Shown here: positions 10,134 through 54,703 of the stretch, one piece after another | How the letters are laid out: the number at the start of each line of letters is the position of its first letter | Numbering within the stretch: the stretch's first letter is position 1 | NCBI GenBank assembly: GCA_025058515.1 | Contig: JANXDW010000026.1 | Location: 18,332 to 82,331 of the forward strand | Length of the DNA stretch: 64,000 bases | Source: Aigarchaeota archaeon | GTDB lineage: Archaea; Thermoproteota; Nitrososphaeria_A; Caldarchaeales; Wolframiiraptoraceae | Reading direction: 5' to 3' | Translations under genes and position numbers: made by a program | Notes under the pieces: model-generated | What the model saw: only the letters and a program-made list of their open reading frames with translations | What the model was told of the DNA's origin: nothing | Databases searched by the model: none

Positions 10134-10931
10134 CTACATTATTGCTTCATCTAGATATTTACCACATTGGCAGCTTCTCTCTTCAGGGATCTTCGGGATA
10201 GCTTTCTCTAATAACTTTCTAACCTTCTCAACATTCTCCTTCATAGTCCTTACAACTTCTTCTGCACTAACAGGTTTCTCAGCCCATACATCGTAGTCGG
10301 TTACCATGGCTATGGTTAGGTAGCACATCCTCGCTTCTCTAGCAAGGTTTACTTCAGGTACTAGAGTCATGCCTATTATATGTGCACCCCAACTTCGGTA
10401 AAGTCTAGATTCAGCTCTAGTTGAGAATCTAGGTCCTTGAATGCAGACATAGACTCCACCTCTATGTATTGGTAAGTTTAGAGATCTTGCAACATCGTAT
10501 ATTATGTCTGTTAGCTCTGGGCAGAATGGGTCGGCCATGCTAATATGAGCTACCTTCCCTCCATCGTAGAATGTTCCAGGTCTTCCCCAGGTCCTATCGA
10601 TATACTGGTCGGGAAGAACTAGTTCTCCCGGTTTATAATCTTCTTGTAGACTACCTACAGCACTCGGTGCGAGGATTCTCTCAACCTCTAATTCTTTTAG
10701 TGCCCAGATATTTGCACGATAGTTTATAGCGTGTGGAGGAATTGTGTGACCTTCTCCATGTCTTGGGATGAAGGCTACCGACCTATTCATATACTCTCCT
10801 ACAGTAACATAAGCACTAGGTGAACCGTATGGTGTATAGACTTTAATTTTCTCAACATTCTTTAGAAGACCTGGGTCGTATATTCCAGACCCGCCTATCA
10901 GCCCTATCTTACATTTCCTAATCCCAACCAT
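10134..10931 (-). CDS. mtnP: S-methyl-5'-thioadenosine phosphorylase / purine nucleoside phosphorylase (PNP family II)
   Basis: N-terminal [14 protein letters not shown]-fold residues, and a C-terminal Cys cluster (CQCGKY) as in archaeal MTAPs. Confidence 0.75.
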
Positions 10932-10972: not shown

Positions 10973-11749
10973 TTATATTAGAGTGGCGAGTTCTCTAAAA
11001 GAAGTTTTCTTGAAACCCTTAATCTCTTCTCCTCTTGAAGTAACGTTATAGAGCTTTTTATCTGAAGTTGATGAATAGAGTTCTAGAAGAGTCTTACCGA
11101 TAGAGAGCTTCTTCTTTTTAATCTTAACCCATCTCTCGTCCATCATATTATAGTTTTTAGAGTACTGACCTATCTCTTCTCCAAAATCCATTCCCGCTAA
11201 CACTATCTTCTCGAAACCTAGTATATCAGATAAGAAGACTGCTCTATCTCCATCTGTGAATCCACCGAAGTTGTACATGTTTCCAAATGGTTCGCATTGT
11301 ACAGTCCCTAGTATTCTCCCATATAGACGTGGTAAAAGACTTCTTATCTTTATAATATTATCTCCATGAGCATGTACTATCATGGCAAGACATCTCCTCG
11401 AAGATTCTATCAATATATCATCACCTCCATCTAGATCTGTTACAATAAAATCCATTCTTAGTTTCTTGTCTAAGAATGCTCGTGAAGCTCCATCAGCTAC
11501 AAAGACGGTGACTTTATCAATTATATCTAACTCTATAAACTCCTGTATGTCTAATGTAAGCGATGGACCTGCACCGAAGATTATCGCTGTATCATTTTCC
11601 TTAATCATCTCTTTCAATTCATGAATTGTTAAAGCTCTACTAGCTAACATCTCATTCAATATATGAGCTGCTCTAAGATCTTCTTCAACTGAGTATCCCA
11701 TCTCTCTAACTATCTCAAGATATATCGGCTCCCACTCTTCCCATCTCAC
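10973..11749 (-). CDS. MptE-like protein (DUF115/PF01973 family; putative 6-hydroxymethyl-7,8-dihydropterin diphosphokinase)
   Basis: IIFGAGPSL Rossmann-like motif and about 250-aa size typical of the DUF115/MptE family. It sits next to an MptA-type GTP cyclohydrolase. Confidence 0.45.
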
Positions 11750-11760
11750 TAGATTACCAC

Positions 11761-12630
11761 CTACATATCTAGCAGTTTCTTCAGATCCCCTATCCTCACA
11801 TTAATTTTTGCTGCAATATCTTGAGAGTGCAAGCTTTCTTTACTCTGAACACATGCTAATATCTTCGACTCATCAGGGAGATCTGACCATTTATCAACAA
11901 TCTTTTTAACGATCTCTCTCAAGGTATCTTCTACGAATTTAGAATTCTTTAATGCATCAACCACTATTCTTGCTTCATCTATTCTCTTCAAGTAAGAATG
12001 TAGAGGAGAGCTGAAAGATGATTTAACTATCTCCAATAATTGTATGAGGTCAACCTCAAAGTCTCTGGGAACTTGGAGGAAGACTCTAGCTCTACTTCTC
12101 TGCATATGGGTTGTATCTATTCCATGGAAAGAGCTCTTAACTACTTCTCTTGCACATGGGCATGCGGTTAAACCTTCAACTTCAACTCCAACATACTTTA
12201 CGGTTGCTAGCTCTCTATGTGCTATTATTCTAACATGTATTTTAAAATGCTCATAAGACACCGATTTAGTAACAGGTGATTCCGATTTATAGTATGCGGG
12301 AGACTCTATATCAATGTAAACTTTACTTGAGTATGGATGAACACTTAGTAATCTCCTTGCAATCTCTTCTCCTACTTCTTCAAGTTTCACTTTCTCTCCT
12401 GAAAATTCTTTAACTATCTCTAAGATAACACCATATATTCTAGAAGCATGGATCCCTCGTTTATCTCGAGGCAAGTCTATAAATATGTTAAACTTTGGGA
12501 CGAGAATTATCTCTAACCCGTTAAGAATTATTCTACCAGTAGGTATCCTTATGTTTTTAAAACCTACCCGATTTATTGGGATCGGTACATCTGGCCTTAG
12601 ATCTTGAACATCTGGAATACTGCTCATCAA
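11761..12630 (-). CDS. mptA: GTP cyclohydrolase MptA/FolE2 family (type IB)
   Basis: N-terminal PDVQDLRPDVPIPINRVG and a conserved CPC motif (LTACPCAREV). Length 289 aa. Confidence 0.55.
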   Translation of the reverse strand: MMSSIPDVQDLRPDVPIPINRVGFKNIRIPTGRIILNGLEIILVPKFNIFIDLPRDKRGIHASRIYGVILEIVKEFSGEKVKLEEVGEEIARRLLSVHPYSSKVYIDIESPAYYKSESPVTKSVSYEHFKIHVRIIAHRELATVKYVGVEVEGLTACPCAREVVKSSFHGIDTTHMQRSRARVFLQVPRDFEVDLIQLLEIVKSSFSSPLHSYLKRIDEARIVVDALKNSKFVEDTLREIVKKIVDKWSDLPDESKILACVQSKESLHSQDIAAKINVRIGDLKKLLDM

Positions 12631-12719
12631 TATGCTCTAAAAGAGACTTGCTAATAAACTAACTTTAAATGATAAATTATGAGTTATCTATCTGAGGCGG
12701 TGGTCTAGGTGTTTGAGGT

Positions 12720-13646
12720 TTGAAGCTCAAGGTAGAAGCTGGTTCAAGAATCCATCTAGGATTCATCGATCCAATAGGTGTTCTCGGACGTAGATGGGGT
12801 TCAGTAGGATTATACTTAAATGAGCCAAAGCTATCTCTCACAATATCTAAATGTAATGATATTATTGTAGATGGTCCAAGATGGTTGAAGGATTTAGCAG
12901 AGAACATAGTTAAAAGACTTGGAATAGATGGGTTAATGATTGAGTGCTCTAACCATATCCCTAGACACGTAGGATTAGGCTCTGGAACTCAGACGATCCT
13001 CTCAATAGGGTTAGCAGTTTCTAAGATCTATAAGCTTGATTTAACACTTAGAGATATAGCTTTGATGTTTAATAGATGTAGAAAGTCTGGTGCAGGATTC
13101 TGGCTATTCCAAGTAGGCGGCATAGTCATAGATGGAGGAAATACATCTGAGGAAGAAATTCCACCATTACTAGCTAGGTTCGACCTCCCCGAGGAGTGGA
13201 TGATTCTTCTAGCTATTCCCTTAAATGAAGGTTTAGGTCTTCATGGAAGAATTGAAGAAGAGAAATTTAAGATGCTTAATGCGGCAGATCCTAAAGAAGC
13301 TTCATTGATAATCTTGATGAAGTTACTACCATCTATAGTGCAGAGGAATTTTGAGAGATTCTCAGAGGCTGTAGAAGAACTTGACCTAGTAACATCTAGA
13401 TTCTTTGAAACAGCTCAATCGGGTAGATATTTTAAAAGTTCTTCTAAAGTTGTTGAATTTTTGAAAAACATAGGAGTGAGGGGGGTGGGGCAAAGCTCTT
13501 GGGGTCCTACGATATATGGATTTTTAGAAAGCTCTGAAGTTGAAGAAGTGGGTAAGAAGCTTAAAAACATAGAGGGTTTTAGATTCATCTTTACAACTCC
13601 ACGTAATAAGGGTGCAGAGATCTCTCAACTCCAATCTAGTTTTTAG
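12720..13646 (+). CDS. GHMP-kinase-fold enzyme, beta-ribofuranosylaminobenzene 5'-phosphate (beta-RFAP) synthase-like
   Basis: N-terminal SRIHLGFIDPIG resembles the RIH(M/F)GLID start of beta-RFAP synthases. GHMP motif HVGLGSGTQ. Context is MptA and MptE-like genes. Confidence 0.5.
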   Translation: MKLKVEAGSRIHLGFIDPIGVLGRRWGSVGLYLNEPKLSLTISKCNDIIVDGPRWLKDLAENIVKRLGIDGLMIECSNHIPRHVGLGSGTQTILSIGLAVSKIYKLDLTLRDIALMFNRCRKSGAGFWLFQVGGIVIDGGNTSEEEIPPLLARFDLPEEWMILLAIPLNEGLGLHGRIEEEKFKMLNAADPKEASLIILMKLLPSIVQRNFERFSEAVEELDLVTSRFFETAQSGRYFKSSSKVVEFLKNIGVRGVGQSSWGPTIYGFLESSEVEEVGKKLKNIEGFRFIFTTPRNKGAEISQLQSSF

Positions 13647-22333: not shown

Positions 22334-22903
22334 GTGGATAGATTGAGCAAGATAAAGAAAGCTTTAAACTTTCTAGTCTTCATCACCTTATTCATACTCT
22401 TAGGATTATTGGTCATAGCTGCTTTATACAATCTTTCAGGAGAGGTCTTCCCACTACTAGTTGTAAAAAGTGGAAGTATGGAGCCAGTTCTAAGTAGAGG
22501 GGATATAATATTGATAGAGAAAGTAAGTCCTGATGAAATTAGAGCAGATATCGTGAATGGGGATATTATAGTTTTCTATAAACCTGGAACAAATATACTC
22601 ATAGTTCATAGAGCTATAAGAAAAGTTGATGGAGGTTTTATAACTAAAGGAGATGCGAATACTGGTTCAGACTATTTTTCACCTGTACCTCCAGAGAACA
22701 TCGTCGGTAGGTGGACGGGTATGAAGATACCTTCATGGTCTGGGCTAGGATATTTATCGCTATTCTTAAGAGGAGAGCTCTATCCACCTTATGGTAAGAT
22801 AGTCTTGATAGTGCTCCTAGTTATAAACGTGGTTTTCATAGTGAAAGATATTCTTTCAAGAGGGAAGAAGAACGCTCAGGAAGAGAAGAAAGTAGAGTCT
22901 TAA
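22334..22903 (+). CDS. Signal peptidase I, archaeal/Sec11 type
   Basis: N-terminal TM, catalytic SGSMEP box, and a GDAN-like box (KGDANTGSD). Confidence 0.7.
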   Translation: MDRLSKIKKALNFLVFITLFILLGLLVIAALYNLSGEVFPLLVVKSGSMEPVLSRGDIILIEKVSPDEIRADIVNGDIIVFYKPGTNILIVHRAIRKVDGGFITKGDANTGSDYFSPVPPENIVGRWTGMKIPSWSGLGYLSLFLRGELYPPYGKIVLIVLLVINVVFIVKDILSRGKKNAQEEKKVES

Positions 22904-23507
22904 GATATTCTTCAAATATCTTTCCAGACGCAGTCTTCTTAACTATATCTATACTGTATGAGATAGACTTTAACAATCTTTCAATACTGATCCCTTGGTC
23001 AAGATAAGGCTCAATCCTACTCATATTTACTGCACACTCTACTAACGCATATACAGCTCTACTATATGGTTCGATTATTCCTACACCTTCATAAACTACT
23101 ACAACTTTACATATGAAATCTCTTCTAGAAATCTTATCAATTACTTCTTCTACATTAAACTCGATGTAAGCCTCCATATTCTTTAATCTTGGAACATCAA
23201 CTATCTCCGCATCCTCGATCTCTTCATGTAAGTATCTTTCTTTATCTTTAGCTAGGTACTTGATAAATAAGATAGGGTTACGAGTTACATTTACAACACC
23301 TCGTCCACTCTCTATGAGATTACTATGTGTCTTTGTATCTTTATAGACGGAGAGAAGGAAGCTAGAGAGATTATCAAGAAACTTTATACCCATTGGTGCT
23401 GCATTTATCTCTCCATCTCTAGATTTTGTTGTTAGTATAACTTCATAGATGAGGTCTGGGGAAACTGTTGGCAGAATATCTCTTATAGACTTAGAGATCT
23501 TCTTCAT
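22836..23507 (-). CDS. Hypothetical protein, DUF447-like (FMN-binding split-barrel?), H4MPT-associated family
   Basis: 223 aa. The family assignment comes from remembered DUF447 features and adjacency to a CitG-like gene, and was not verified. Confidence 0.3.
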   Translation of the reverse strand: MKKISKSIRDILPTVSPDLIYEVILTTKSRDGEINAAPMGIKFLDNLSSFLLSVYKDTKTHSNLIESGRGVVNVTRNPILFIKYLAKDKERYLHEEIEDAEIVDVPRLKNMEAYIEFNVEEVIDKISRRDFICKVVVVYEGVGIIEPYSRAVYALVECAVNMSRIEPYLDQGISIERLLKSISYSIDIVKKTASGKIFEEYLKTLLSSLPERSSSLLKEYLSL

Positions 23508-25153: not shown

Positions 25154-25300
25154 GTGAAAGTAGTTACAGTTCATCTCCCTGAACCTTACATAGAGGCTAT
25201 AGATGAACTTGTAAAGAAGAGGATATACCCCAATAGAGCTGAGGCCATAAGAATGGCCGTAAGAGATTTTATCCAATCGGAGGCAAACATAAGTGAATGA
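25154..25300 (+). CDS. Ribbon-helix-helix (CopG/Arc/MetJ-like) small DNA-binding protein, 48 aa
   Basis: Not in the ORF track. GTG start preceded by AGGTGAGAG. Sequence VKVVTVHLPEPYIEAIDELVKKRIYPNRAEAIRMAVRDFIQ gives a beta-strand plus two helices. It overlaps the ftsZ start by 8 nt. Confidence 0.45.
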   Translation: MKVVTVHLPEPYIEAIDELVKKRIYPNRAEAIRMAVRDFIQSEANISE

Positions 25301-26351
25301 AGAAATCTTGATTGATGCAGAGATTTTGAATGATGTTAGAATTACGGTGATCGGCGTAGGAGGAGCTGGATGTAATACCGTCAACCGACTGACGAACCCC
25401 AACCTTAACAAGATAAAATTAATAGCAGCAAATACAGATGCGCAACATCTAGAACTCATAAAGACTAAGAATAAGATAGTTTTAGGGAAGTCTGTTACAA
25501 AGTTTAGAGGTGCTGGAGGAGACCCGGCGAAAGGCAGAGAAGCTGCTGAAGAATCTATAGAAGAGATTAGAGAAGCTATAGAAGACTCTGATATAGTTTT
25601 CATCTCAGCTGGGCTAGGTGGGGGAACAGGTACTGGTGCTGCACCTCTAATAGCTGAAGTCGCAAAAGAAGTTGGAGCAGTAGCAATAGGTTTCGTCACC
25701 TTACCATTCAAGTTTGAGGGAAGTATTAGGAAGAGGATAGCTTTACAAGGTCTAGAAGAGATGAAGAGAAGCTGCCATACAGTTATCGCAATAGATAATA
25801 ATAAATTATTAGAACTATATCCTCAATATAGTTTAAAGAGCGCTTTAGCATTAGCAGATGAAGTAATAAGTAACATGATATTGAGTATAATGGAGTCTAT
25901 TGTTAAGCCTAGCTTAATAAACATAGATTACGCAGATTTTCGAACGATTATGATGAGAGGGAATCTCGCAGCCCTCGGGATAGGGGTCTCATCTACTCCA
26001 AATAGAGCTGAAGAAGCAGCATTCAATGCTTTAGAATGCCCATTACTAGATGTTTCATACGATGGTCTAACAGGAGCGATAATACATGTTACAGGTGGAG
26101 AAGATATGAAGATCAGTGAAGCTGCTAGACCTGCAGAAATAGTCTCAGAACTTATGGATAAAGAAGCTCTAATAATCTGGGGTGCTAGAATAGATAGTTC
26201 TTTCGATTCAAAACTCCAAGTATCTTTAATATTGACAGGTGTAAAAGATAAAGAAGTTGATATTTCTTTATCTCAGAATAAAACGTCTGAGATATTATAT
26301 GAAGAAGAATTAGAGAAGATCATGGAAGAACTAGGAGTTAAGGCATTATAA
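25293..26351 (+). CDS. ftsZ: Cell division GTPase FtsZ
   Basis: Tubulin/FtsZ signature GGGTGTGAAP and N-terminal ITVIGVGGAGCNTVNRL. 352 aa with a GTG start. Confidence 0.85.
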   Translation: MNEEILIDAEILNDVRITVIGVGGAGCNTVNRLTNPNLNKIKLIAANTDAQHLELIKTKNKIVLGKSVTKFRGAGGDPAKGREAAEESIEEIREAIEDSDIVFISAGLGGGTGTGAAPLIAEVAKEVGAVAIGFVTLPFKFEGSIRKRIALQGLEEMKRSCHTVIAIDNNKLLELYPQYSLKSALALADEVISNMILSIMESIVKPSLINIDYADFRTIMMRGNLAALGIGVSSTPNRAEEAAFNALECPLLDVSYDGLTGAIIHVTGGEDMKISEAARPAEIVSELMDKEALIIWGARIDSSFDSKLQVSLILTGVKDKEVDISLSQNKTSEILYEEELEKIMEELGVKAL

Positions 26352-29904: not shown

Positions 29905-30870
29905 GTGAGAATATTGGTTAACGATTATCTTTTCATTAAAAATATTGCTGAGAAGCTTGAGTCGAATATACATGAAATAATAGTTGGGATGGGGGAAGCT
30001 ATTAGAAGCTTACTCATAGGATTATTATCCGAGGGGCATATACTAATTGAAGGACCTCCTGGGACGGCTAAAACATATCTTGGACGAGTTTTCGCAAACT
30101 CTCTAGGACTTGAATATAGAAGAATACAGTTTACCATAGACCTCATGCCCAGCGATATTACTGGATCTCTAATCTATAATAGAGCGACTGGGACTCTAGA
30201 GTTTAGACCTGGCCCTATATTTGCTAATGTCGTTTTAGCAGATGAGATAAACCGGGCTTCCCCTCGTTCTCAATCAGCTCTTCTTGAATGTATGCAAGAG
30301 AAGCAAGTAACTATCGAGGGCGTAGCCTATCCGCTTCCAAGACCATTTTTAATTATCGCTACCCAAAACCCTATAGAACTTGAAGGGACGTACCCTCTAC
30401 CAGAAGCTGAGCTCGATAGATTCTTGATAAGAGTCTTCATAGACTATCTGGATGCTTCATCAGAATTAGAGATACTTAGTAAGAAACAGCTACATGGTGA
30501 GAAGATCGATGTTGAAAAGATTGCAAGTTTAGAAGAGATACTTAAAGCAATAGATTTAACTAGCAAAGTATATGTTGATAGATCTATTCTCGAGTATATT
30601 GTTAAGTTAGGTAATGCGACTAGAAAACGTGAAGACATCTTACTGGGGGTGAGCCCTAGAGGTGAAGTATATCTTCTATACGCTTCAAAGGCCGCAGCTG
30701 CAATCGATGGCAAGTCTTATGTTACTCCAGACCATATCAAATCAGTAGTTAAATTAGTATTCAATCATAGAATCATCTTGAAGAGTAGAAGTGTCAACCC
30801 TATGACTTTACGTCGTGAAATTCTTAAGATATTGGATGAGATCGTTGAAGAGGTAGAGCCCCCTAGATGA
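29905..30870 (+). CDS. MoxR-family AAA+ ATPase
   Basis: Walker A GPPGTAKT, Walker B VVLADEINRA, and a length of about 320 aa typical of MoxR. Confidence 0.85.
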   Translation: MRILVNDYLFIKNIAEKLESNIHEIIVGMGEAIRSLLIGLLSEGHILIEGPPGTAKTYLGRVFANSLGLEYRRIQFTIDLMPSDITGSLIYNRATGTLEFRPGPIFANVVLADEINRASPRSQSALLECMQEKQVTIEGVAYPLPRPFLIIATQNPIELEGTYPLPEAELDRFLIRVFIDYLDASSELEILSKKQLHGEKIDVEKIASLEEILKAIDLTSKVYVDRSILEYIVKLGNATRKREDILLGVSPRGEVYLLYASKAAAAIDGKSYVTPDHIKSVVKLVFNHRIILKSRSVNPMTLRREILKILDEIVEEVEPPR

Positions 30871-32072
30871 AGTTAACAGTTCAAGCTGTAAGAATATATC
30901 AGTATTCTGCAATATTCTTCTCAGCAACATCCTTGTTGTTAATTAACCATCCCGCAATCATCTTAACACCTATATTTATAGTACTCACATTAACACTCTA
31001 CGTAACCAGAAGCTTAAAAAAACTTAAAAGAATAGATGAGAACTATTTCAAATCATCTCTAACCATCTCTCCCAATATTCTACTTGTTGGTGAGAAAGCA
31101 ACAGTAAGAGTACACGTCAAATGTAATGTCTCAGATAAGTATAGAGGAGAAGTTCAAGTAATTCTTGATGAAGGAGTAAAAATAGATGATGGAAGAAGTA
31201 GCTGGACTGGAATCATAGATTCTAATCAAGAGATCTTATTAGAATTCATCGTTAAGATTGGAAGAGCAGGATTAATTAAGATTGGACCGATAATACTAGT
31301 GGTTAAAGATGATCTTGATTTTGTAGCTAAAACTATTAAATTGGATAATGTAGGGATAATATTCTCATTCCAAGAACCTTTAAGAACAAGAGGAGTATTA
31401 ACAACATCTGCGATAAGAGGTTCTATTCAGCCTGGTTACACACTTAATCCATTCATAGGTATCGATGAAGAATATAGAGAAAGTGTAGAGAGTCTACAAT
31501 CATCTTTAAAAAAAGTTGATTGGAGGAGGACAGCTAGAATAGGAGGAGAGGAGGTTTATGTTAAAGATTACGCTAAGAGAAGATCTTCAGACATCATTAT
31601 AGGAGTCGGGAGTGGACTAGACCTAGACATACCTTCTATTGGAAATATCAAAACATGGGTAATGCAGATAATAATCTCTTATGCTTTACATTATCTGAGA
31701 GAAGGCTCAAGAATGTGGATCCTAGAATATGATGAAGAAAAGCCAATTTACATTCAATTAAAACATACTTATGGAGAGTTAATCTTAAAAGATGAGGTGG
31801 AGCCTTCAGGAGGAATAATCATATACATTTCTAGATTAATAATGCTAAAAGAATTAGATTTCTTAAATAAGAATATTGATCTTCAGAGGTTTAAACTGGA
31901 AGTACTTATATTGGATATCTCAGATGAAGTCATAGAAATTGTAAAAGAGGATGCGATAAACTATGAGGTTGAGAGATTGAGAAAACTTAAGACAGAATTA
32001 AGAGATTCTGTTAAGATAGTGAAGCTTAAAGATCTTTTAGAAGGCCTCCGAAGGAGTCTCGCTTCTAGGTGA
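30867..32072 (+). CDS. DUF58-family protein (MoxR partner, vWA-like fold) with N-terminal TM helices
   Basis: Block KKVDWRRTARIGGEEVYVKDY matches the DUF58 IDWK.SAR.G.L.VRE core. Its start overlaps the MoxR stop. Confidence 0.6.
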   Translation: MKLTVQAVRIYQYSAIFFSATSLLLINHPAIILTPIFIVLTLTLYVTRSLKKLKRIDENYFKSSLTISPNILLVGEKATVRVHVKCNVSDKYRGEVQVILDEGVKIDDGRSSWTGIIDSNQEILLEFIVKIGRAGLIKIGPIILVVKDDLDFVAKTIKLDNVGIIFSFQEPLRTRGVLTTSAIRGSIQPGYTLNPFIGIDEEYRESVESLQSSLKKVDWRRTARIGGEEVYVKDYAKRRSSDIIIGVGSGLDLDIPSIGNIKTWVMQIIISYALHYLREGSRMWILEYDEEKPIYIQLKHTYGELILKDEVEPSGGIIIYISRLIMLKELDFLNKNIDLQRFKLEVLILDISDEVIEIVKEDAINYEVERLRKLKTELRDSVKIVKLKDLLEGLRRSLASR

Positions 32073-32080
32073 ACTCATGA

Positions 32081-32794
32081 ATGAATACTTCAACGATGAT
32101 CTTAACTTTAATCTTGTTGTCACCTTACATCTACACTCTACTCTATATATTGTCTAAGTTTACCCAGATAGATTACTTTACATTAATTGGGCTATTCTCT
32201 CTCATATCTTTAGCTATCTCGAAATATTCTTCAATAATACTCTTTTCTTTTACGATAGTTCCCTCCATTACTTGTTTCGGATTACTCGTAAGCGGATATC
32301 CTCTCCCACTGATAGGGTTAGCCACAGGCTTCCTCATGGCCTTCCCCCTCTTCACACTATTAGGAGCTCTATATGAGAATCGATCTGAGAACATTGTATT
32401 AAGCTACCTCATCGCTTTAATCCTGAACATCTCTCTCTTAATCAGTTCTGAGGTAGAGAAGCCTTCTCCCACAAATTTTATTTCAACCTTAATATCGAGA
32501 GTTCCTAGAACCATACTTCAAGGAGAAGGCTATACACTAACTGAATATGTGAACAGCATCTTCACAATCTTAACCGCTTTATCTTGTCTATCGTTAATCT
32601 TCATTATTATTAAGAGAATTGAGCCTAGCTTCCCCAAAAGCTTAAGAGACCTGAATCCCTTGATACTCTCTACTCTCATAACCTTAACTCTATCTTTACT
32701 AACATATTTCTGGGTCTATAGCAACTTCATAGTAATCTCTTCAATATTGATTATAATGGTATACGTTATCATATCTTTAAAGATGGCGAAATAA
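32081..32794 (+). CDS. Polytopic integral membrane protein, function unknown
   Basis: 237 aa with 6-7 hydrophobic helices. Confidence 0.4.
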   Translation: MNTSTMILTLILLSPYIYTLLYILSKFTQIDYFTLIGLFSLISLAISKYSSIILFSFTIVPSITCFGLLVSGYPLPLIGLATGFLMAFPLFTLLGALYENRSENIVLSYLIALILNISLLISSEVEKPSPTNFISTLISRVPRTILQGEGYTLTEYVNSIFTILTALSCLSLIFIIIKRIEPSFPKSLRDLNPLILSTLITLTLSLLTYFWVYSNFIVISSILIIMVYVIISLKMAK

Positions 32795-32795
32795 T

Positions 32796-34433
32796 ATGGA
32801 GATGAAGATTTACAAGTCCTTCTTAATAATTCTGATAATCTCCTCAACACTATTTTTACATACTTCTCTTGCAGAACCTCAAGCTAAAGATCCATCGGTA
32901 ATGATTGGTTTCAGTAGAAATTATTTATTTCCACTACTCGATGGTGGAATACTATATTTTGAGAAGGGAGAACAGCTCTGGGCAATGGTTATAGAAGAGA
33001 AAACTACATTGAGTTTAATCTCTCCTTCAAAAGATATTAAAACATATGATCTCTCTCCTCTTCAACCAACTTTAATCAAAACTTTTAACGATGATGACCC
33101 AGTTGGAGAATGGATTCTAAATAATAATGGAAGAAACTTAACTATTATCCTATCTGAGAGAGCTCAACTATCTAATTTTGTCCAACTAAATTATAGACTA
33201 CAAAAAGGAATGCTTCTGATCGATATAGCTAATGGTAACCAGAGTGCATTCATTATCACAGATGTAGGGGGAAGGGTACTCATCCCAGCTGGAACTGAAT
33301 TAACGATCATGCTTAAAGATCTCAACTTAGTAGAGGGTGAATATGATGGAGAGATCGTTGTAGACCTAGTTTATCGGGATGAGTTTAATTATTCAGGAAG
33401 ATTGAATGGTCGCCCATACCTAGTTAAGATGGAGTCAATTGCTGGTAGAGTTATCGGTAAGATTGAGGGAGATACCGTGAAATTATCTATTCCTAATCTA
33501 CACACAGTAGGGTCTGGAGGCATAATACCTGTTAGGATGGGAGAAGCAATATTGAAAGTTAAACATCCCTTGAGCGTTGAGCCTAGAAGTTTAGAGAAGA
33601 ACAATTCATCAAGTCTCGATCTTCAAAGAATTGAGATATACGTTGTTGATAAGAGCTTCATGAGATGGGCTGGTGTGAGAACTGCGAAATCAGTTATGAT
33701 AAATGTTAGAGAAGCATTAAACAAGACTTTAAGAATTCTCTCATCTAATGGAAGCAGTTCGGGAATCTCTTACTCTACAGTTCCTATATCATCAGTTCTT
33801 TTTTATGAGCCTAGACTTAATAGAATTATTGAGAATATATCTGTAGTGGTGGATGGGCGGCAATCAGTAGTTGTAGATGATATAGCGTATATTCTTTTAT
33901 CTGATAGTGAAACCGCAGTCCCTAACTTGGTTTCAGATGGTGGTGAAGAGATCTCAGTACATGCTTATTTAAATCAATTCAAAATCTATAGTGGTAAATT
34001 TAAGATCAGTAGAGGAGAATTAAAAACTATTCCTGTCCAGCTACATTCTATCAATATACAAGCATTTCTCCCAAATAATGAGAGAGCTCTTAGTGGAGAG
34101 CTCAAAATAAATGGTTCTAGATTAAACTATTTGAATGGTTCTGGTTCAGCTCTTTTACCAACTGGAACCTACAGGATCGAATTCATTATTGATGATTGGT
34201 ATGGAGGATCTGTTTTAAAGATCTCGGGAGATACCACTATAAGAATTACATTAGTAAGAAAGCTTACTATATTGGATGTTCTCAGAATAATAGCTGGATT
34301 AGAGGTTGCCATAGTATTATCCACTGTAATCTTTATTATTAGATATAAGAAGAAGATCCAGAAGAACATAGCTGTAACGAGATCTCCAAATCTTTCCAAC
34401 CATATTATAAGCTTCTCCTCTATACCGAGCTAA
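32796..34433 (+). CDS. Secreted or surface protein with N-terminal signal peptide and C-terminal TM anchor
   Basis: 545 aa. N-terminal hydrophobic segment, beta-rich body, C-terminal helix LEVAIVLSTVIFII followed by RYKKKIQK. Confidence 0.4.
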   Translation: MEMKIYKSFLIILIISSTLFLHTSLAEPQAKDPSVMIGFSRNYLFPLLDGGILYFEKGEQLWAMVIEEKTTLSLISPSKDIKTYDLSPLQPTLIKTFNDDDPVGEWILNNNGRNLTIILSERAQLSNFVQLNYRLQKGMLLIDIANGNQSAFIITDVGGRVLIPAGTELTIMLKDLNLVEGEYDGEIVVDLVYRDEFNYSGRLNGRPYLVKMESIAGRVIGKIEGDTVKLSIPNLHTVGSGGIIPVRMGEAILKVKHPLSVEPRSLEKNNSSSLDLQRIEIYVVDKSFMRWAGVRTAKSVMINVREALNKTLRILSSNGSSSGISYSTVPISSVLFYEPRLNRIIENISVVVDGRQSVVVDDIAYILLSDSETAVPNLVSDGGEEISVHAYLNQFKIYSGKFKISRGELKTIPVQLHSINIQAFLPNNERALSGELKINGSRLNYLNGSGSALLPTGTYRIEFIIDDWYGGSVLKISGDTTIRITLVRKLTILDVLRIIAGLEVAIVLSTVIFIIRYKKKIQKNIAVTRSPNLSNHIISFSSIPS

Positions 34434-37987: not shown

Positions 37988-39190
37988 CTATAAATATTTA
38001 TCTCTTGATAAATTCCTATTGAGAAAACAGGAGGGGTCAGAAGAGAGCGGATCTCCAGAGTATGCGTATGATCTTGCACGGCAGCCTCCACATACTTCTC
38101 TTAAATTACATTCTCTACAAAATCCTTTCAAGTTTCTTCTATCTCTAAAAATATTGAATACCTCTCCTCTCCATATTTCTTCCGCATTCTTTTCTAAGAG
38201 ATTTCCAGTATTAATTGGTAGGAAGGGGCATGGCCATACATCTCCATTTGGTTTAATATAGAACATTCCCCTTCCAGCTATACATCCTTTAAAGATTAGT
38301 GAGGCGAGCCTCGGATTTAAATTCTTCTTTAGAGCTAAGTATGCGAAGAATTCAGGTAGGCCTACAGGTATTATGATAGGCTTAACCGTGCTCTGGATAT
38401 TTTCTAAAGTTTTTATTACGTAATAAAATTCACTTATGGATAATGCTTCATTGATGAGCTGTTCTCCTCTTCCAGAAGGCATTAACTGATATAGTAGTGT
38501 TACATGTGCTTCAAGCTTATCTGAAATCTCCAGTAATTGCTTAAGCTGGTTTAAGTTTCTCCTCGATAACGTTATATTTATCTGAGTGTACATTTTTTCT
38601 CTGCGAGCATTTATTATTCCTTTAATGGCTGATCGCAATGCCCCCCTGACCCCTCTATAATCATCATGCTGGTCGGGAGAGGTAAAGTCTATGCTTACCG
38701 CAACGCCTTCAACACCATTCTCAACCATCTTCCTAACCACATCTCTAGTGATTAGTACACCGTTAGTAGCAATTACTATGCTAAACCCCATATTTCGAGC
38801 ATACCTGACAAGGTCGAGTAGATCATTCCTTATAAGAGGTTCTCCACCTGTAAAGACGAGCATACGGAAATCATCAACATGTGCAAGGTTCTCTATAATC
38901 TTCTTTGCTTCTTCTGTACGTAATTCTCTATCCCCTTTTTCGCCACCTCTTGCATGGCAGTGGACGCATCTTAAATTGCAGTTAGATGTGACTTCGTAAA
39001 CTGGGTGTACTGGGTATCCGAAGCATCCTAGACCAATGGCCCCAGCTGCAACGTTTAAGAGAGTCTTAATGTATCTGAGCCAGTATCCTAAACCTCTCCA
39101 TCCCGTTATCTCTTTAAACGTTGTAAGTGTCATTGCTTGTCGCATTATAAGTGAGGGCGGAATATATGGAGGTAAAACAAACCTATTCAT
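37988..39190 (-). CDS. Radical SAM enzyme with C-terminal SPASM domain (AhbD/PqqE-like architecture)
   Basis: CNLRCVHCHARG (Cx3Cx2C) preceded by VYEVTS, TIM-barrel core, and a C-terminal Cys-rich tail CPFLP...CRECNLREVCGGCRARS. Confidence 0.7.
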   Translation of the reverse strand: MNRFVLPPYIPPSLIMRQAMTLTTFKEITGWRGLGYWLRYIKTLLNVAAGAIGLGCFGYPVHPVYEVTSNCNLRCVHCHARGGEKGDRELRTEEAKKIIENLAHVDDFRMLVFTGGEPLIRNDLLDLVRYARNMGFSIVIATNGVLITRDVVRKMVENGVEGVAVSIDFTSPDQHDDYRGVRGALRSAIKGIINARREKMYTQINITLSRRNLNQLKQLLEISDKLEAHVTLLYQLMPSGRGEQLINEALSISEFYYVIKTLENIQSTVKPIIIPVGLPEFFAYLALKKNLNPRLASLIFKGCIAGRGMFYIKPNGDVWPCPFLPINTGNLLEKNAEEIWRGEVFNIFRDRRNLKGFCRECNLREVCGGCRARSYAYSGDPLSSDPSCFLNRNLSRDKYL

Positions 39191-39201
39191 AACCGTAATC
39201 T

Positions 39202-40131
39202 TTACATTACACTTCCGATTACGTATGAAATTGACAATAGCATCGTCGTTAAAGCATATGTTATGATTGTGCCAGCCATTGCTGGTTTCAGTTTCTGGGG
39301 ATACTCGTAATATCTAATACAAGTAGATATACTTCTAACTGTTAATGGGATTGTTGCAAGAGCGATAAGACCTATCAATGGAATAATCTCCATAAAGACT
39401 CCTAATAATATGGAGATATAGCTAAATACCATTAAGAAAATGTAGAAACTTCTAGAATTTTCTCTACCTAGCCTAACTACAAGGTTATTCTTTCCGATGG
39501 ACTTGTCCGCTCGATAATCTGGGAACTCGTTAATCCATATTACAGCAGTTATCAGAGCTGCTGGTACTAGTGAAGGGATTAGAAAGCTGGTTGATGGAAG
39601 ACTGCCCGTTTGAACATAATAACTACCGAAAGGTATTAGTATACCATAGTTTAACCCTATCATCACTTCTCCTAGTCCTCTGTAAGCCCACATCAGTGGA
39701 GGCGCAGTGTAGAATGCACCTGCGAGGAATCCAATAATAGTCAGAGGGATAATGTATAGACCCACTGTCACTGTAAAGTACACCGCTATAGTGGAAGCGA
39801 TTATCCATGAAACTAACCCCATCTTAAAAACACTTGAAGGCTCAAGTAGCTTTCTTGGAAGTATACGGCTCCCCGCATTAAACGGTGTAATATCTTCTTC
39901 CATAATCACAACATCTACACCACTCCTATAGTCAAAGAACTCATTAAAGGTATATGTCCCGATCATTACAAATATGATTCCCGCTAATGTTAATAGAAAG
40001 TTGAGCATATTAAATACTCCTAGATCATAGAATGCTATGCACGTACCTAGGATAACTGGCGGAATACCAGCTAAAAAGAACTTGACTCTAATGGCCTCAA
40101 GCCAGACTCGTATCTTGAAGACCATAGACAT
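39202..40131 (-). CDS. UbiA-family aromatic prenyltransferase, MenA-like (1,4-dihydroxy-2-naphthoate polyprenyltransferase-like)
   Basis: Polytopic, 309 aa. Asp-rich motif NEFFDYRSGVD matches the MenA-type N(D/E)xxDxxxGxD spacing. A second Asp-rich region is DYRADKSIGKNN. Confidence 0.55.
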   Translation of the reverse strand: MSMVFKIRVWLEAIRVKFFLAGIPPVILGTCIAFYDLGVFNMLNFLLTLAGIIFVMIGTYTFNEFFDYRSGVDVVIMEEDITPFNAGSRILPRKLLEPSSVFKMGLVSWIIASTIAVYFTVTVGLYIIPLTIIGFLAGAFYTAPPLMWAYRGLGEVMIGLNYGILIPFGSYYVQTGSLPSTSFLIPSLVPAALITAVIWINEFPDYRADKSIGKNNLVVRLGRENSRSFYIFLMVFSYISILLGVFMEIIPLIGLIALATIPLTVRSISTCIRYYEYPQKLKPAMAGTIITYALTTMLLSISYVIGSVM

Positions 40132-40399: not shown

Positions 40400-40520
40400 T
40401 GCGGGGGGTGGGATTTGAACCCACGAACCCCTACGGGATTCCCCACTTTAATTCAGGGGTTCTCATCTCTTATTTGAGAACCTGAACCCTGCGCCGTTGA
40501 CCAGGCTTGGCTACCCCCGC
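40400..40520 (-). tRNA. tRNA-Leu (anticodon CAG) with two predicted introns
   Basis: Minus-strand sequence GCGGGGG-TA-GCCAAGCCTGGTCAACGGC-G-CAGGG-TTCAGG[about 21-nt insert]CCCTG-[about 15-nt insert]-TCCCGTAGGGGTTC-GTGGGTTCAAATCCCAC-CCCCCGC-A. The acceptor and T arms are perfect, the D arm is Leu-type, the variable arm is long, and the discriminator is A. Confidence 0.8.
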
Positions 40521-47171: not shown

Positions 47172-48233
47172 TTGAAGATTGTGAAGATAATCCAGATCGA
47201 GGTCTCTTCAAGATGTAACGCAGACTGCTTGATGTGTCCTAAATCTAGTTATAAAGATCTATGGAGTTTTGGAGATATGGATCTTGAAGATTATACTAAG
47301 ATAAGTAGTTGTTTCGATGAATGCGATATCGTATGGTTGCAAGGATGGGGGGAGCCATTGCTCTCTAAAAATATTTACGAGATGGTTAGATTGGCTGGGA
47401 GAAGAGATACTACAGTAGGTCTTACAACAAATGCTATGCTATTAAATAGTGAACGATCGAGGAGATTGATAGAGAATGGTGTTAAAGTCTTATCTATATC
47501 GATTGCAGGTGGAACGAGAGAGACTCATGAGAGTATTAGGAGGGGGACCAGCTTTAATAAAATTATTGAGAATGTTAAAGCATTGACACAGTTGAGGAGA
47601 AATGTAAATGCAAGAGATTTAAAGGTGATCTTCACATTCTTGAGAATTAAACAGAATATTGCTGAGCTTCCAAGAGTTGTCGAGCTTGCATCTGAGCTAG
47701 ATGTAGACCAAGTTATCGGAACGAACATAGACTATATACCGACTAAAGAACACTACGATATGAAGATCTTTTCAGAGGGTAAAGCTTCTAAAGAGTATTT
47801 AGAGATAATAAGATCGAGTGAAGAAAGAGCAAGAGAGTTAGGGGTCTCTATCTTCAACTATCCTATAGAGATGGAGGAAGTCATAGTATGCCCTGAAGAC
47901 CCTACTAGAGGATTATTCATCTCTCACGATGGAAGCGTCTCACCATGTGTTTACTTAAATGTACCTTTAAGATCTCATACAATTCCAAGATATTTCAAGA
48001 ATACTCAATACGATGTTCCTAAACTAATTTACGGGAACATAAAGGTAGAGAGGTTAGAAGAGATTTGGAGAAAAAAAGAATATATGGAATTTAGGGATGT
48101 TTATAATGAGAGAGTAAAGTCTTCGAAACCTACTGTGAGCTTCATTCAATCTTTACTTGAAGTTAGAGAGGTACATAGGATTCCCCAGATACCTGAACCG
48201 TGCAGAACTTGTTATAAAGCTTATGGAGTTTAA
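47172..48233 (+). CDS. Radical SAM enzyme with C-terminal Cys-containing (twitch/SPASM-like) extension
   Basis: CNADCLMCPK (Cx3Cx2C), GGEPLL-like WGEPLL, and C-terminal Cys residues (CPEDP...SPCVY...CRTC). A TTG or GTG start. Confidence 0.55.
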   Translation: MKIVKIIQIEVSSRCNADCLMCPKSSYKDLWSFGDMDLEDYTKISSCFDECDIVWLQGWGEPLLSKNIYEMVRLAGRRDTTVGLTTNAMLLNSERSRRLIENGVKVLSISIAGGTRETHESIRRGTSFNKIIENVKALTQLRRNVNARDLKVIFTFLRIKQNIAELPRVVELASELDVDQVIGTNIDYIPTKEHYDMKIFSEGKASKEYLEIIRSSEERARELGVSIFNYPIEMEEVIVCPEDPTRGLFISHDGSVSPCVYLNVPLRSHTIPRYFKNTQYDVPKLIYGNIKVERLEEIWRKKEYMEFRDVYNERVKSSKPTVSFIQSLLEVREVHRIPQIPEPCRTCYKAYGV

Positions 48234-48966: not shown

Positions 48967-50040
48967 CTATCTCCATTTAAATTGTGTAGTAGTTCTAAAT
49001 GTTGGTAGAGAGAAGATGAAATCATCAATATGCTTATCTGTGAAAGGTATCTCTGTTAAGGTGAAGAATCTCTCCCACCCAATCCTCTTTATCCAATCTC
49101 CTATCCTCTCACCCTTCTTAGCGTTCTTAATCCATGCATCTATAACTTTTTTAGCTGCTTGAACACATTCTGGCCATCTAGGAGGATTATTTGGAAGATA
49201 TGGTATTGCAAGTCTAGAGAATTCTGGAGGACCTCCAGCTACAGCGTTCCCTCCAACCCACATAGATAAGCAGTCATATTTTGGATTGTGTATAAACATC
49301 CCTGGGCAGACTGTGTAGCAGTTTCCACAATACATGCACCTCTCCTCATTAACTATTACTGATTTCTTTTCTGGTGCAGGTCTGATAGCTGCTGTAGGAC
49401 AGCTGGCGACAAGAGTAGGTATCTCGCAAAGCCTACTAACTATATCATCATTAACTACTGGAGGCTTTCTATGCATTCCAACAAATGCAAGGTCTGAACA
49501 GTGTACTGCTCCACACATATTTAAGCAGCATGCAATAGCTATCTTTAGTTTACCTGGTAGATCATCTCTAACAAAGTAATCGTATAGTTCATCGTAGAGA
49601 GCCTTGGCAAGTCCTGGAGCATCTATTATGGCCGTATGGCAGTGAACCCATCCTTGAGTATGTATTATAGCTTTCAAGGATCGACCAGTTCCTCCCACAG
49701 GCCAACCTCTCTCTCTTAATTCTCTTAGTAATCCATCCAGTTTATTCTTATCGGTAACTATGAACTCTACATTATGTCTACTCGTAAACTTCACGTATCC
49801 ATCAGAATATTTATCAGCGATATCGCATAGCTCTCTAACGAAGTAGACGCTAACTATCTTTGGTATCGCTGCTCTAACCATGTAGACTTCATCACCATTC
49901 ATAGAGACGTGTTTTATTATACCTGGAGCAACATATTCGTGGTATCTCCATTTACCGTAATTCTTCATTAATACTGGGTGGACCATCTCTCTATAATGCG
50001 GAGGACCAATATCTGTTATGTACTTCTTCTCTCCAGACAT
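48967..50040 (-). CDS. dsrB: Dissimilatory sulfite reductase beta subunit
   Basis: N-terminal TDIGPPHYREMVHPVLMKNYGKWRYHE, siroheme/Fe-S Cys residues, and an inserted ferredoxin domain (CMYCGNCYTVCP). Confidence 0.85.
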   Translation of the reverse strand: MSGEKKYITDIGPPHYREMVHPVLMKNYGKWRYHEYVAPGIIKHVSMNGDEVYMVRAAIPKIVSVYFVRELCDIADKYSDGYVKFTSRHNVEFIVTDKNKLDGLLRELRERGWPVGGTGRSLKAIIHTQGWVHCHTAIIDAPGLAKALYDELYDYFVRDDLPGKLKIAIACCLNMCGAVHCSDLAFVGMHRKPPVVNDDIVSRLCEIPTLVASCPTAAIRPAPEKKSVIVNEERCMYCGNCYTVCPGMFIHNPKYDCLSMWVGGNAVAGGPPEFSRLAIPYLPNNPPRWPECVQAAKKVIDAWIKNAKKGERIGDWIKRIGWERFFTLTEIPFTDKHIDDFIFSLPTFRTTTQFKWR

Positions 50041-50044
50041 CTTC

Positions 50045-51223
50045 TTACTTCACCTCCTCAAGTTCTTCAGGACTCCAGAAGTAGTATGGATTAGCTCTAG
50101 GAGCATAAACCATCTGAGGAGCCGGTGGTTGACCGATAGCTTTCAAGAAATTCCTCATACCAACCCTATATACTAATTCTCCTACCCTCTCTCTAGTTTT
50201 AGCATTCTCATCCCACCAGTCGAGAATCTTTCTAGTCAACTCCTTTAATTCTCTATATGGTTTGTCAGCCTTCATAAATGGTACGATAACCCATCCGAGA
50301 AATGCTCCCTGCAGTATAGTTGCCTTCCCTCCTAAGAGTATTGATACACCTCTATCATCTCCTGGGAGAATGGCCTTGGGTAAAGCTGATAGACATTTCA
50401 TACATCTTGTACAATCTTCTGGTATGACTCTGAGTTCTTTACCATCCCATTCAAGAGCTTGTGGTGGACATCTAGCAGCTACAGCCGCTATATTCACACC
50501 CTTCTTAGCATATTCTCTTACAGCCTCTTGATCTATCTTTATAGAATCTCTCCATGTTCCAATTATTGCTAAATCTGCACGGGCTAGTGCTGCTACACAA
50601 TCGTTAGGACATCCAGCTATCTTAATCTTGAATTTGTATGGGAATCTAGGTCTATGTATCTCATCTTGAAGTTCCATGGTTAACTCATGGTAGATGTCTA
50701 GAGTATCGATACATGACCATTGGCAGAAAGCTGGTCCACCACAACAACTGAGAGTTCTCACATCACCTCCAGAGCCTCCTAGATCGAATCCTATTGAAAT
50801 CAAGTCTTCAAAACAAGGTTGGAGGCTCGCTGTCTGAGCTCCTAGTAAGATTATGTCTCCTGTAGAACCGTGTAGATTTATGAATCCGGAGCCATGCTTC
50901 TCCCATACATCACAAAGCTTTCTTAATGCTTTGGTTGAGTAAAACCACCCAGCGGGCTGTGCTACTCTAAGTGTATGAACTTCAGGGGTTTGCATAACTT
51001 CAGGTGGAAGATCACTATATCTGCCGATTACGCCTCCACCATACCCTCTTACACCAACTATACCTCCATGCTTCCAGTGGGTTACTCTCTCTACATAAGA
51101 TCTCTCCAATTGTAGTAAGATATTCTTCGAGTAAGGTTTTACCGCCGCCATCCGCTTCATCTCTGTTACGAAACTAGGCCATCGACCTTTCTCTAATTCA
51201 TCTAAGAGAGGTGTCTCAGACAT
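50045..51223 (-). CDS. dsrA: Dissimilatory sulfite reductase alpha subunit
   Basis: N-terminal [16 protein letters not shown], nitrite/sulfite reductase Cys residues, and a ferredoxin-like CTRCMKC. Confidence 0.85.
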
Positions 51224-51474
51224 TTTCTACTCGACTACATTTATTTCGTTAGTCGTATATATTCTTTCTTATTGAAAAATTTCTTTCTAATTGAAAAATC
51301 CTTCCATCTAAAGAATAACGTAGTTATAGAAGAAGAGCAATCACATATATAGATTGAAGGTAAAAACCACACCACAAATGTAAATTATCAATCTAGTCCA
51401 TGAATAGTATAATGGGATTTAATATTTTCTCTTCTCTCAGTTTACCTATCTCAAATCATCCATAATCATCTATC

Positions 51475-52869: not shown

Positions 52870-53549
52870 CTCCTAATATGTCTTTGATCAAGAATTATTT
52901 TTTGTCCATAGAATATTGCTATCGGATGTATGAGGGTTTTAAAAGGTAGGTACATCATGTAAACTTGTGCAAATAGTATGTGGATTAAGAATAATGTATC
53001 TGCAGGTGGGAGTACAGGGTTCAAGGTTATAATGCCTTGGATCCAGCTCCATACTTGAATAGAGTCTATCAACTTGAACATCCGAATATATTGTCCTAGA
53101 AGTAATGTGACTATAAGTAATCCTAGAGCTAGATAATCTGAAAAATAGGATTCTGTTTTCTTATCGTAGATCCTTCTTATGAGAAAACCGAAAGAGCCGA
53201 TTGCTGCGAACATTCCTGCCGCACTTCCTATCTCGTATTCGAGAGGAAGATGAGGCATGAAGATATACTTAGCGTGGAGTGAGAGGCTTACGATTAATCC
53301 TATGTGAAACATCCATGCTAGAGTGAATATAAGTTTATCAAATTTTCTTGGACCAGGTAAGGAGAAGATCCTCTTTCCAATAGTGATGAATATGCTTGCG
53401 AGGTTTTTCTTTGCAGGGAATATAGCCCACATCACTGGTCTAGGGAGGAACATGAATTTGAAGAAGTTGTATCCTAATGCGATTCCAAAGGTCGCCATCA
53501 TGATGTAAGGCAAGACTACCCCAATTATAAACAACGTAAAATCATACAT
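52866..53549 (-). CDS. dsrM: DsrM/HdrE/NarI-like membrane b-type cytochrome subunit
   Basis: 227 aa with 5 TM helices and conserved His in helices. Its stop overlaps the dsrK start. Confidence 0.55.
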   Translation of the reverse strand: MYDFTLFIIGVVLPYIMMATFGIALGYNFFKFMFLPRPVMWAIFPAKKNLASIFITIGKRIFSLPGPRKFDKLIFTLAWMFHIGLIVSLSLHAKYIFMPHLPLEYEIGSAAGMFAAIGSFGFLIRRIYDKKTESYFSDYLALGLLIVTLLLGQYIRMFKLIDSIQVWSWIQGIITLNPVLPPADTLFLIHILFAQVYMMYLPFKTLIHPIAIFYGQKIILDQRHIRR

Positions 53550-53776
53550 CTAGAGATCACCCTTATACTTAAATCTGCAATATGCAAATCTAGTTGACAC
53601 TTTTATTAAGCTTTTATCTTTTCTAAGCATAGTTCATATGGAGGATAAAGAGTCACATATTTAAATTTATGTTTATTACAATGGTTATTGTAATGTGTTA
53701 GACCGCAGATCTCCAGCATTCAGAATGATTATTATCTATCTAAAGAATAGCAATTCATGAATCGTGATCATCATTA

Positions 53777-54511: not shown

Positions 54512-54703
54512 TGATTCTCTCCTCTATACTATGGTTTTAATTCATCTATATTAATAGTCTTAGTTCTTCTCCTCTCTTGATAAGAGAAGTCTATACGATT
54601 AGATTGAAGAATGTGAGGAAAACTAATGTCTACTTACTTATTCTCTACTTCAACATTTTATAAAATTATTGTTCATCTAAGAGTTTAAGCTGAATCTTTT
54701 TAA

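Follow-up and report, generated by a model that had tools for sequence, protein, structure and literature searches.

Three genes predicted to encode entry enzymes for the synthesis of a methanopterin-type pterin in a thermophilic archaeon of the order Caldarchaeales

The mptE–mptA and mptG-like locus

We analyzed a 64-kb stretch of contig JANXDW010000026.1 from an Aigarchaeota archaeon (hereafter the window), and found that three adjacent genes at 10973-13646 very probably encode the first enzymes by which a thermophilic member of the Caldarchaeales close to Candidatus Geocrenenecus makes a methanopterin-type pterin (estimated probability about 0.85). The original prediction, drawn from the sequence, had named them as MptA, MptE and a protein resembling beta-ribofuranosylaminobenzene 5'-phosphate (beta-RFAP) synthase, and family models agree with it for all three. 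It had also read the trio, together with a second module at 22.8-24.5 kb, as a sign of tetrahydromethanopterin (H4MPT) or a related modified pterin; protein families, the residues that contact phosphoribosyl pyrophosphate (PRPP) and gene linkage support this reading. The interval is occupied by exactly three open reading frames (ORFs), which are arranged as follows:

10973-11749, minus strand: mptE, 258 amino acids (aa), predicted 6-hydroxymethyl-7,8-dihydropterin pyrophosphokinase (HPPK); PF01973, PDB 8sd5
11761-12630, minus strand: mptA, 289 aa, predicted archaeal GTP cyclohydrolase, first gene of the minus-strand unit; TIGR00294
12631-12719: intergenic spacer, 89 bp, AT-rich, between the divergent mptA-mptE unit and the GHMP gene
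12720-13646, plus strand: mptG-like gene, 308 aa, beta-RFAP synthase family, GHMP fold; TIGR00144

On the minus strand, 11 bp separate the end of mptA from the start of mptE. Reading of the spacer revealed a TATA-like TTTATTA on the minus strand and TTTAAAT on the plus strand, and we presume that 12631-12719 is a candidate shared promoter region. The motifs on which the three assignments had been built, TACPCAREV in the 289-aa, FGAGPSLT in the 258-aa and GSRIHLGFIDP in the 308-aa translation, are all present. In the assembly GCA_026413845.1, the mptA gene as called by NCBI is one codon shorter, and the record 'hypothetical protein NZ929_03685 [Aigarchaeota archaeon]' (JAOAKF010000003.1) matches the 308-aa protein at 100% identity.

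Assignment of the MptA and MptE proteins

The 289-aa protein matched the MptA equivalog TIGR00294 over its full length with 243.2 bits (E = 3.2e-72), which clears the cutoff of 220 by a modest margin, whereas the FolE2 and GTP cyclohydrolase IV equivalogs reached 136 bits each and stayed under their cutoffs (215 for FolE2). PF02649 covered it from end to end (190.7 bits, E = 4.6e-56). Its closest solved structures are bacterial FolE2 proteins (3d2o, E = 1.9e-16), and in the alignment to FolE2 the CPC motif and the H...QRS region are conserved. The protein resembles MptA (MJ0775) both in the equivalog score and in keeping the CPC motif. We assign it as a predicted MptA; Fe(II) dependence and the cyclic-phosphate product, the biochemical traits that separate MptA from FolE2, are not readable from its sequence.

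The 258-aa protein matched PF01973 with 89.8 bits (cutoff 34.6, E = 2.2e-25), a family that also covers Maf proteins. It could accordingly be a Maf-type (motility-associated factor, PseD-like) glycosyltransferase for surface proteins that lies beside mptA by coincidence, and the sole NCBIfam match of this DUF115 protein, which passed none of the NCBIfam models, was indeed PseD (flagellin modification). However, this match amounted to just 18.7 bits against a cutoff of 670 and covered 70 of 640 model positions. The protein aligned with the HPPK structure 8sd5 at E = 3.5e-42 and nearly end to end (residues 3-224 on 3-230 of 241), while no Maf-type chain appeared in the PDB search up to E = 10. 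Its length is that of MptE, and the adjacency of mptA and mptE is kept in Geocrenenecus, Wolframiiraptor and Asgard loci. The Maf-type reading is in effect already refuted, and we regard it as highly improbable; the DUF115/MptE-like call of the original prediction withstood this comparison. Set against MptE (MJ1634; 8sd5; PF01973), the protein showed the same size, the GAGPS motif and no sequence-level difference, so that its predicted activity is that of an MptE-type HPPK. MptE has been described as the HPPK 'in most Archaea', with an annotation that has not been propagated (PMC12506659), a gap that is illustrated by the name 'hypothetical protein' given by NCBI to the neighboring GHMP gene of the metagenome-assembled genome (MAG).

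Family scores of the GHMP protein

Both Pfam GHMP domains are present in the 308-aa protein. The beta-RFAP synthase subfamily model TIGR00144 matched it with 152.4 bits (cutoff 113.5, E = 1.7e-44) over 1-324 of 325 model positions. Rival GHMP families were compared as well: the next ones, archaeal shikimate kinase and mevalonate kinase, scored about 19 bits against 152-171 for the beta-RFAP synthase models, and pantoate kinase gave no match at all in the family model search, which leaves the beta-RFAP synthase-like claim standing. JGI and NCBI annotate close relatives of the protein as beta-RFAP synthase (family protein). It shares with beta-RFAP synthase/MptG (MJ1427, AF2089, MTH0830; Methylobacterium extorquens MptG; EC 2.4.2.54) the GHMP fold, the N-terminal R-x-H-x-G-x-x-D...G-R motif, the intact phosphate loop and R119. 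Pterin-branch, DUF447 and CitG-like genes are linked to its gene, a pattern also seen in further archaea and in methylotrophs.

On the strict equivalog NF040726, the protein reached 171.2 bits, about half of the cutoff of 328, like a methanotroph mptG. For calibration, GHMP genes from informative contexts were scored on NF040726 (cutoff 328) and TIGR00144 (cutoff 113.5), with the following results in bits:

Window GHMP protein: NF040726 171.2, TIGR00144 152.4
Methylococcales mptG (locus L061): NF040726 163.7, TIGR00144 152.0
Methylovirgula GHMP protein: NF040726 191.9, TIGR00144 162.3
Pyrococcus GHMP protein: NF040726 181.1, TIGR00144 175.5
Methanocellales GHMP protein: NF040726 246.5, TIGR00144 208.5

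All of the calibration genes fell below the NF040726 cutoff, and the missed cutoff therefore carries no weight against a beta-RFAP synthase function. The idea that it marks a different function was rejected, since mptG of the Methylococcales methanotroph island misses the cutoff too. M. extorquens mptG mutants reportedly lack H4MPT, a finding that is said to go back to Rasche et al. 2004. In the Methylococcales locus the gene order is GHMP, ATP-grasp, mch, RimK-like ATP-grasp, CitG-like and fae, which matches the published mch-orf5-orf7-fae methanopterin island (PMC3615186). The sequences behind NF040726 evidently form a narrow set, presumably 'group 1' (methanogens) of PMC6787355, and the window protein probably lies outside the methanogen/Sulfolobus set described there.

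PRPP-binding residues and phylogeny of the GHMP protein

The closest solved structure of the GHMP protein is ForT, a C-glycoside synthase of formycin biosynthesis (PDB 6yqq, E = 1.3e-17); homoserine kinase followed at E = 0.01. In the ForT/PRPP crystal structure, PRPP is contacted by R19, H99-S104, T106, R135, S139 and S142, and isothermal titration calorimetry together with mutagenesis showed that PRPP binding requires R19, T106 and R135 (PMC8183095). Through alignment, we found that R19, H99, G101, G103, S104, T106, R135 and S139 of ForT correspond to R10, H83, G85, G87, S88, T90, R119 and S123 of the window protein, and that S142 is replaced by G126. The GHMP loop H-x-G-x-G-S is intact (H83-S88, H-V-G-L-G-S). 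Across 121 aligned homologs, H83, G85, G87, S88, T90 and R119 are invariant, and R10 is found in 119; S123 is likewise invariant or nearly so. The PRPP contacts common to both proteins presumably reflect an SN1-like decarboxylative formation of a C-C bond.

Substitution of D19 and R26 in MTH0830 raised the Km for p-aminobenzoate 3-fold and 10-fold, respectively (PMC6787355). The equivalent residues D17 and R24 are both present in the window protein; R24 was equated with R26 because ForT R33 corresponds to R26 of the RFAP synthase MTH0830 (PMC8183095), and D17 with D19 from the 7-residue spacing rather than from an alignment to MTH0830. H12 is kept in 118 and D17 in 119 of the 121 aligned sequences, whereas ForT has serine at both positions. 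The window protein thus has the signature of RFAP synthases and not that of ForT, from which it further differs by an identity of just 27%, by the longer loops of ForT and by its mptA and mptE neighbors in place of an antibiotic gene cluster.

In a neighbor-joining tree without support values, the window protein fell into a Geocrenenecus and Wolframiiraptor clade among archaeal sequences, and ForT formed a long outgroup branch. Such a placement within a Caldarchaeales clade is consistent with vertical inheritance.

Conservation of gene order

Homologous loci were collected by a genome scan with the motif G[VA]GQSSWGP, and the best 80 loci, from 80 named genomes, were kept. The nearest species representatives are Ca. 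Geocrenenecus arthurdayi and Ca. G. dongiae, with GHMP identities of 63% and 57%; Geocrenenecus, which belongs to the Wolframiiraptoraceae within the order Caldarchaeales, was formerly known as the AigG5 lineage (PMC9246946). The order MTAP (methylthioadenosine phosphorylase)-MptE-MptA / GHMP-aconitase-DNA ligase recurs in four Geocrenenecus-like contigs (L001, L002, L006, L007), where DUF447 and a CitG-like gene follow at a distance of about 9 kb, and the order MptE-MptA / GHMP-ligase recurs in Wolframiiraptor at 45% identity. The preservation of gene order between genera at 45-63% protein identity indicates purifying selection. In Pyrococcus, the genes of the trio are not clustered. Three Asgard loci (L013, L031, L040) carry MptE and MptA beside a DUF447-GHMP pair, and in L013, the one annotated Asgard locus, the archaeal dihydroneopterin aldolase MptD (PF04038) adjoins MptE. 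In a Chloroflexi MAG (L057, 3849-7793), the CitG-like, DUF447, GHMP and MptA genes are consecutive on one strand.

Some further features of these loci were recorded. The MTAP gene of the window (10134-10931, minus strand, equivalog 426 bits) follows mptE on its strand after 41 bp, a position kept in the Geocrenenecus loci and not in Wolframiiraptor. In L013 (4528-8972, Atabeyarchaeia), MptD, MptE and MptA are divergent from an unknown 125-aa ORF, DUF447 and GHMP, and a DUF1464 gene lies just downstream on the opposite strand. With L057 and L013, compact clusters of the methanopterin type occur beyond the classical H4MPT users. A 112-aa ORF downstream of MptE in Wolframiiraptor, without a Pfam family, was considered as a candidate MptD and rejected; neither the window nor the Geocrenenecus loci contain a homolog of it.

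The DUF447 and CitG-like module

The second module claimed at 22.8-24.5 kb is present as two genes:

22836-23507, minus strand: DUF447 protein, split-barrel, flavin-reductase-like; PF04289, PF20766
23584-24492, minus strand: CitG-family protein, by context of the Orf7 type ('H4MPT-linked C1 transfer pathway protein'); PF01874

The DUF447 protein scored 79.5 bits on PF04289 and 32.2 bits on PF20766, with a weak match to Flavin_Reduct, and the CitG-like protein 196.4 bits on PF01874. The latter was rejected as an authentic CitG (triphosphoribosyl-dephospho-CoA synthase) or MdcB, because its best score was 93.7 bits against equivalog cutoffs of 272-477; no citrate lyase or malonate decarboxylase genes were found near it, and its gene context fits the Orf7-type methanopterin-linked subgroup. 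The solved relatives of both proteins are uncharacterized structural-genomics entries (MTH_863 for DUF447 and a 'putative triphosphoribosyl-dephospho-CoA synthase' for the CitG-like protein).

The proposed link between this module and the pterin trio is backed by comparative genomics. Among the 80 GHMP loci, a DUF447 homolog occurs in 32 (in 29 of them not more than 300 bp from the GHMP gene) and a CitG-like homolog in 29, so that 51 loci have one or the other and 10 have both. This linkage justifies the use of the module as supporting evidence. Compared with the H4MPT islands of methylotrophs (mch-orf5-orf7-fae-orf17; orf19-orf22; pcbD-mptG), the CitG-like protein shares its Pfam family with the gene at the orf7 position in Methylococcales, whereas the window genes stand in two groups 9 kb apart, without an mch, fae, ATP-grasp or hydantoinase-like partner in the window.

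The DUF447 ORF and a convergent ORF for an archaeal signal peptidase I overlap by 68 bp at their 3' ends (22836-22903), and a similar overlap of 86 bp was seen in the Geocrenenecus-like contig L001 (20053-20138).

Proposed pathway

From the assignments above we infer the following enzyme activities, acceptor substrate, cofactor structure and cofactor use. MptA would convert GTP to 7,8-dihydroneopterin 2',3'-cyclic phosphate. Ring opening by MptB and aldol cleavage by MptD, both presumably encoded elsewhere than in the window, would follow, and MptE would convert 6-hydroxymethyl-7,8-dihydropterin to its diphosphate. The GHMP enzyme is expected to make the other half of the cofactor: it would bind PRPP through the GHMP loop, R10, T90 and R119, and loss of pyrophosphate would give an oxocarbenium-like ribosyl species, as proposed for the mechanism of ForT (PMC8183095). 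An aromatic acid would then attack this species through its C-1 and lose CO2 irreversibly, which would yield beta-RFAP and commit the pathway to methanopterin over folate. The acceptor may be p-aminobenzoate, or 4-hydroxybenzoate as reported for Methanocaldococcus, which would give the hydroxybenzene analogue; the ForT paper, in the passage that cites White 2011, names the methanogen enzyme 'RHP synthase' (PMC8183095). An enzyme of the MJ0301 type would couple the pterin and RFAP halves, after which the DUF447 and CitG-like proteins would most likely work on the ribosyl/ribitol side chain. The resulting one-carbon carrier would be tetrahydromethanopterin or a variant specific to this lineage; no gene for an H4MPT-dependent enzyme lies in the window.

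A more detailed proposal for the second module is tentative, and we consider it rather doubtful: the two proteins may carry out two steps of methanopterin side-chain assembly. DUF447 might catalyze the reductive opening of the ribofuranosyl ring of RFAP to the ribityl form. The CitG-like protein, by analogy with the reaction of authentic CitG, might use ATP, invert C-1' with release of adenine and join an alpha-linked 5-(tri)phosphoribosyl group to the ribitol, after which the triphosphate of its product could drive the formation of the phosphodiester to hydroxyglutarate. If this were true, a complete methanopterin-type cofactor would be made by Caldarchaeales such as Geocrenenecus, despite their life as sulfite-reducing heterotrophs. 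The tight linkage of DUF447 and CitG-like genes to mptG makes them candidates for unassigned steps of methanopterin biosynthesis, and this is the lead of wider value.

Alternative explanations

Several observations weigh against a methanopterin-type pathway. To go by the title of de Crecy-Lagard et al. 2012, as cited in PMC12506659, MptA and MptE are common to the folate and methanopterin routes in archaea; they alone cannot separate the two, and the case therefore rests on the GHMP, DUF447 and CitG-like genes. Beyond the missed NF040726 cutoff, the GHMP protein is about 35% identical to every homolog outside the Caldarchaeales. The tree was built without the characterized RFAP synthases MJ1427, AF2089 and MTH0830, and the Archaeoglobaceae and Methanocellales homologs that were recovered may be paralogs of the characterized 'group 1' enzymes. 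In the ForT crystal structure, the equivalent of R26 lies about 18 Å from PRPP, which questions its role in acceptor binding (PMC8183095), and acceptor specificity is not readable from sequence. Pfam scans and phmmer searches of the 64-kb window found no MptB, MptD, dihydropteroate-synthase-like coupling enzyme (MJ0301 type) or ATP-grasp ligase, and Pfam scans of the window found no side-chain ligase, methylase or dihydromethanopterin reductase. The H4MPT-dependent enzymes Ftr, Mch, Mtd, Mer, Fae and H4MPT-type GlyA were likewise absent from these 64 kb. With phmmer queries against window ORFs of at least 40 aa, MptD, Mch, Fae, two ATP-grasp proteins, Orf9/Orf17-type proteins, DUF1464 and two small unknown neighbors gave no match at E<=1.

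One rival explanation is that MptA and MptE feed an ordinary folate pathway, and that the GHMP protein is a PRPP-dependent C-glycoside synthase acting on another aromatic acid, outside cofactor synthesis. ForT and PyfQ, which act in the synthesis of C-nucleoside antibiotics, provide a precedent, and it is ForT that stands closest among the solved structures; the missed strict equivalog cutoff, the sharing of MptA and MptE between both routes and the unpredictable acceptor also fit. Yet the distance from ForT, in both identity and branch length, and the retention of His12 and Asp17 in place of its serines speak for an enzyme of the RFAP-synthase type. Moreover, the divergent pairing of GHMP with mptA-mptE is kept across Caldarchaeales genera, the window also contains the DUF447 and CitG-like genes, which accompany mptG in methylotrophs and others, and the neighbors of the mptG-like gene in the window are aconitase, DNA ligase and MTAP, with no secondary-metabolite genes flanking it. 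We consider this explanation unlikely.

A slightly less likely one is that the pathway has become a relic despite intact genes, and yields a truncated pterin or another ribosylated aromatic cofactor and no methanopterin-like one-carbon carrier. The downstream biosynthetic and H4MPT-dependent genes not seen in the 64 kb would agree with it, and so would three genome papers on Aigarchaeota/Caldarchaeales (among them PMC9246946 and PMC6053391), which make no mention of methanopterin or folate. On the other hand, all five ORFs (the trio, DUF447 and CitG-like) are full length with conserved functional residues, gene order has been kept between genera at the identities given above, and absence from one 64-kb window is weak evidence for a genome of about 1-2 Mb.

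Sulfite reduction and the significance of the locus

The original prediction placed these pterin genes in an organism that also carries dsr genes and shows no methanogenesis genes in the window, and both statements were borne out. We found dsrA at 50045-51223 (528 bits, cutoff 393) and dsrB at 48967-50040 (489 bits, cutoff 341.5). Scans of window ORFs of at least 110 aa not nested in a longer ORF, apart from two that were read as aminoacyl-tRNA synthetase and aconitase from the sequence or a relative's locus, did not find mcr, mtr, fwd, ftr, mch, mtd or mer in the window, and phmmer queries with Mch and Fae had no window match. It is no surprise to find a methanopterin-type pterin in an archaeon that reduces sulfite or sulfate and is not a methanogen, as Archaeoglobus is the classical example of a sulfate reducer with methanopterin. 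Homologs of RFAP synthase have been recognized since 2002 in Sulfolobus, further non-methanogenic archaea and Methylobacterium, according to PMC6787355. Because such genes are common in archaea that do not produce methane, the finding is correct and ordinary, and knowledge of the enzymes or the pathway is unchanged by it. Its contribution lies in functional assignments for genes that a Caldarchaeales MAG carries as 'hypothetical protein', and in the indication that a dsrAB-bearing lineage builds a one-carbon cofactor of the methanopterin type and not purely of the folate type. This is of some use in the metabolic reconstruction of these thermophiles and in tracing how H4MPT biosynthesis spread among TACK and Asgard archaea.

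The locus at 48967-56787 looks like a complete dissimilatory sulfite reductase locus: it contains dsrB, dsrA, DsrK-like and DsrM-like genes, a uroporphyrinogen-III methyltransferase, a protein with a sirohaem synthase N-terminal domain and a CobB/DsrN-like amidase. According to Hua et al. 2018, dsrAB is present in just two Aigarchaeota, JGI 0000106-J15 among them, and they suggested Firmicutes as the source (PMC6053391); JGI 0000106-J15 belongs to what later became the Geocrenenecus lineage (PMC9246946). Further along, positions 58990-62994 of the plus strand hold a cytochrome b gene and, beyond a gap of 253 bp, a second pair of a NarI-like membrane protein and an Fe-S/CCG protein. This pair resembles DsrMK or HdrDE and is distinct from the pair beside dsrAB.

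Other features of the window

Wolframiiraptoraceae are known for their dependence on tungsten. A radical SAM/SPASM protein (47172-48233, plus strand) is most similar to the maturase of a tungsten-cofactor oxidoreductase, with 179 bits against a cutoff of 380. Another radical SAM/SPASM protein (37988-39190, minus strand) is most similar to the haem b synthase AhbD, with 274 bits against a cutoff of 500, and adjoins a MenA-like prenyltransferase gene (39202-40131). An Rfam tRNA match of 43.6 bits at 40400-40520 (minus strand) covers 71 model positions over 121 nt, which suggests an intron-containing archaeal tRNA; ARAGORN found no tRNA anywhere in the window. At 29905-34433 on the plus strand, a MoxR-type AAA ATPase gene is followed by three ORFs (401, 237 and 545 aa) without a Pfam match. 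Finally, the window encodes a bona fide FtsZ at 25293-26351 (plus strand; TIGR00065, 363 bits, cutoff 295).

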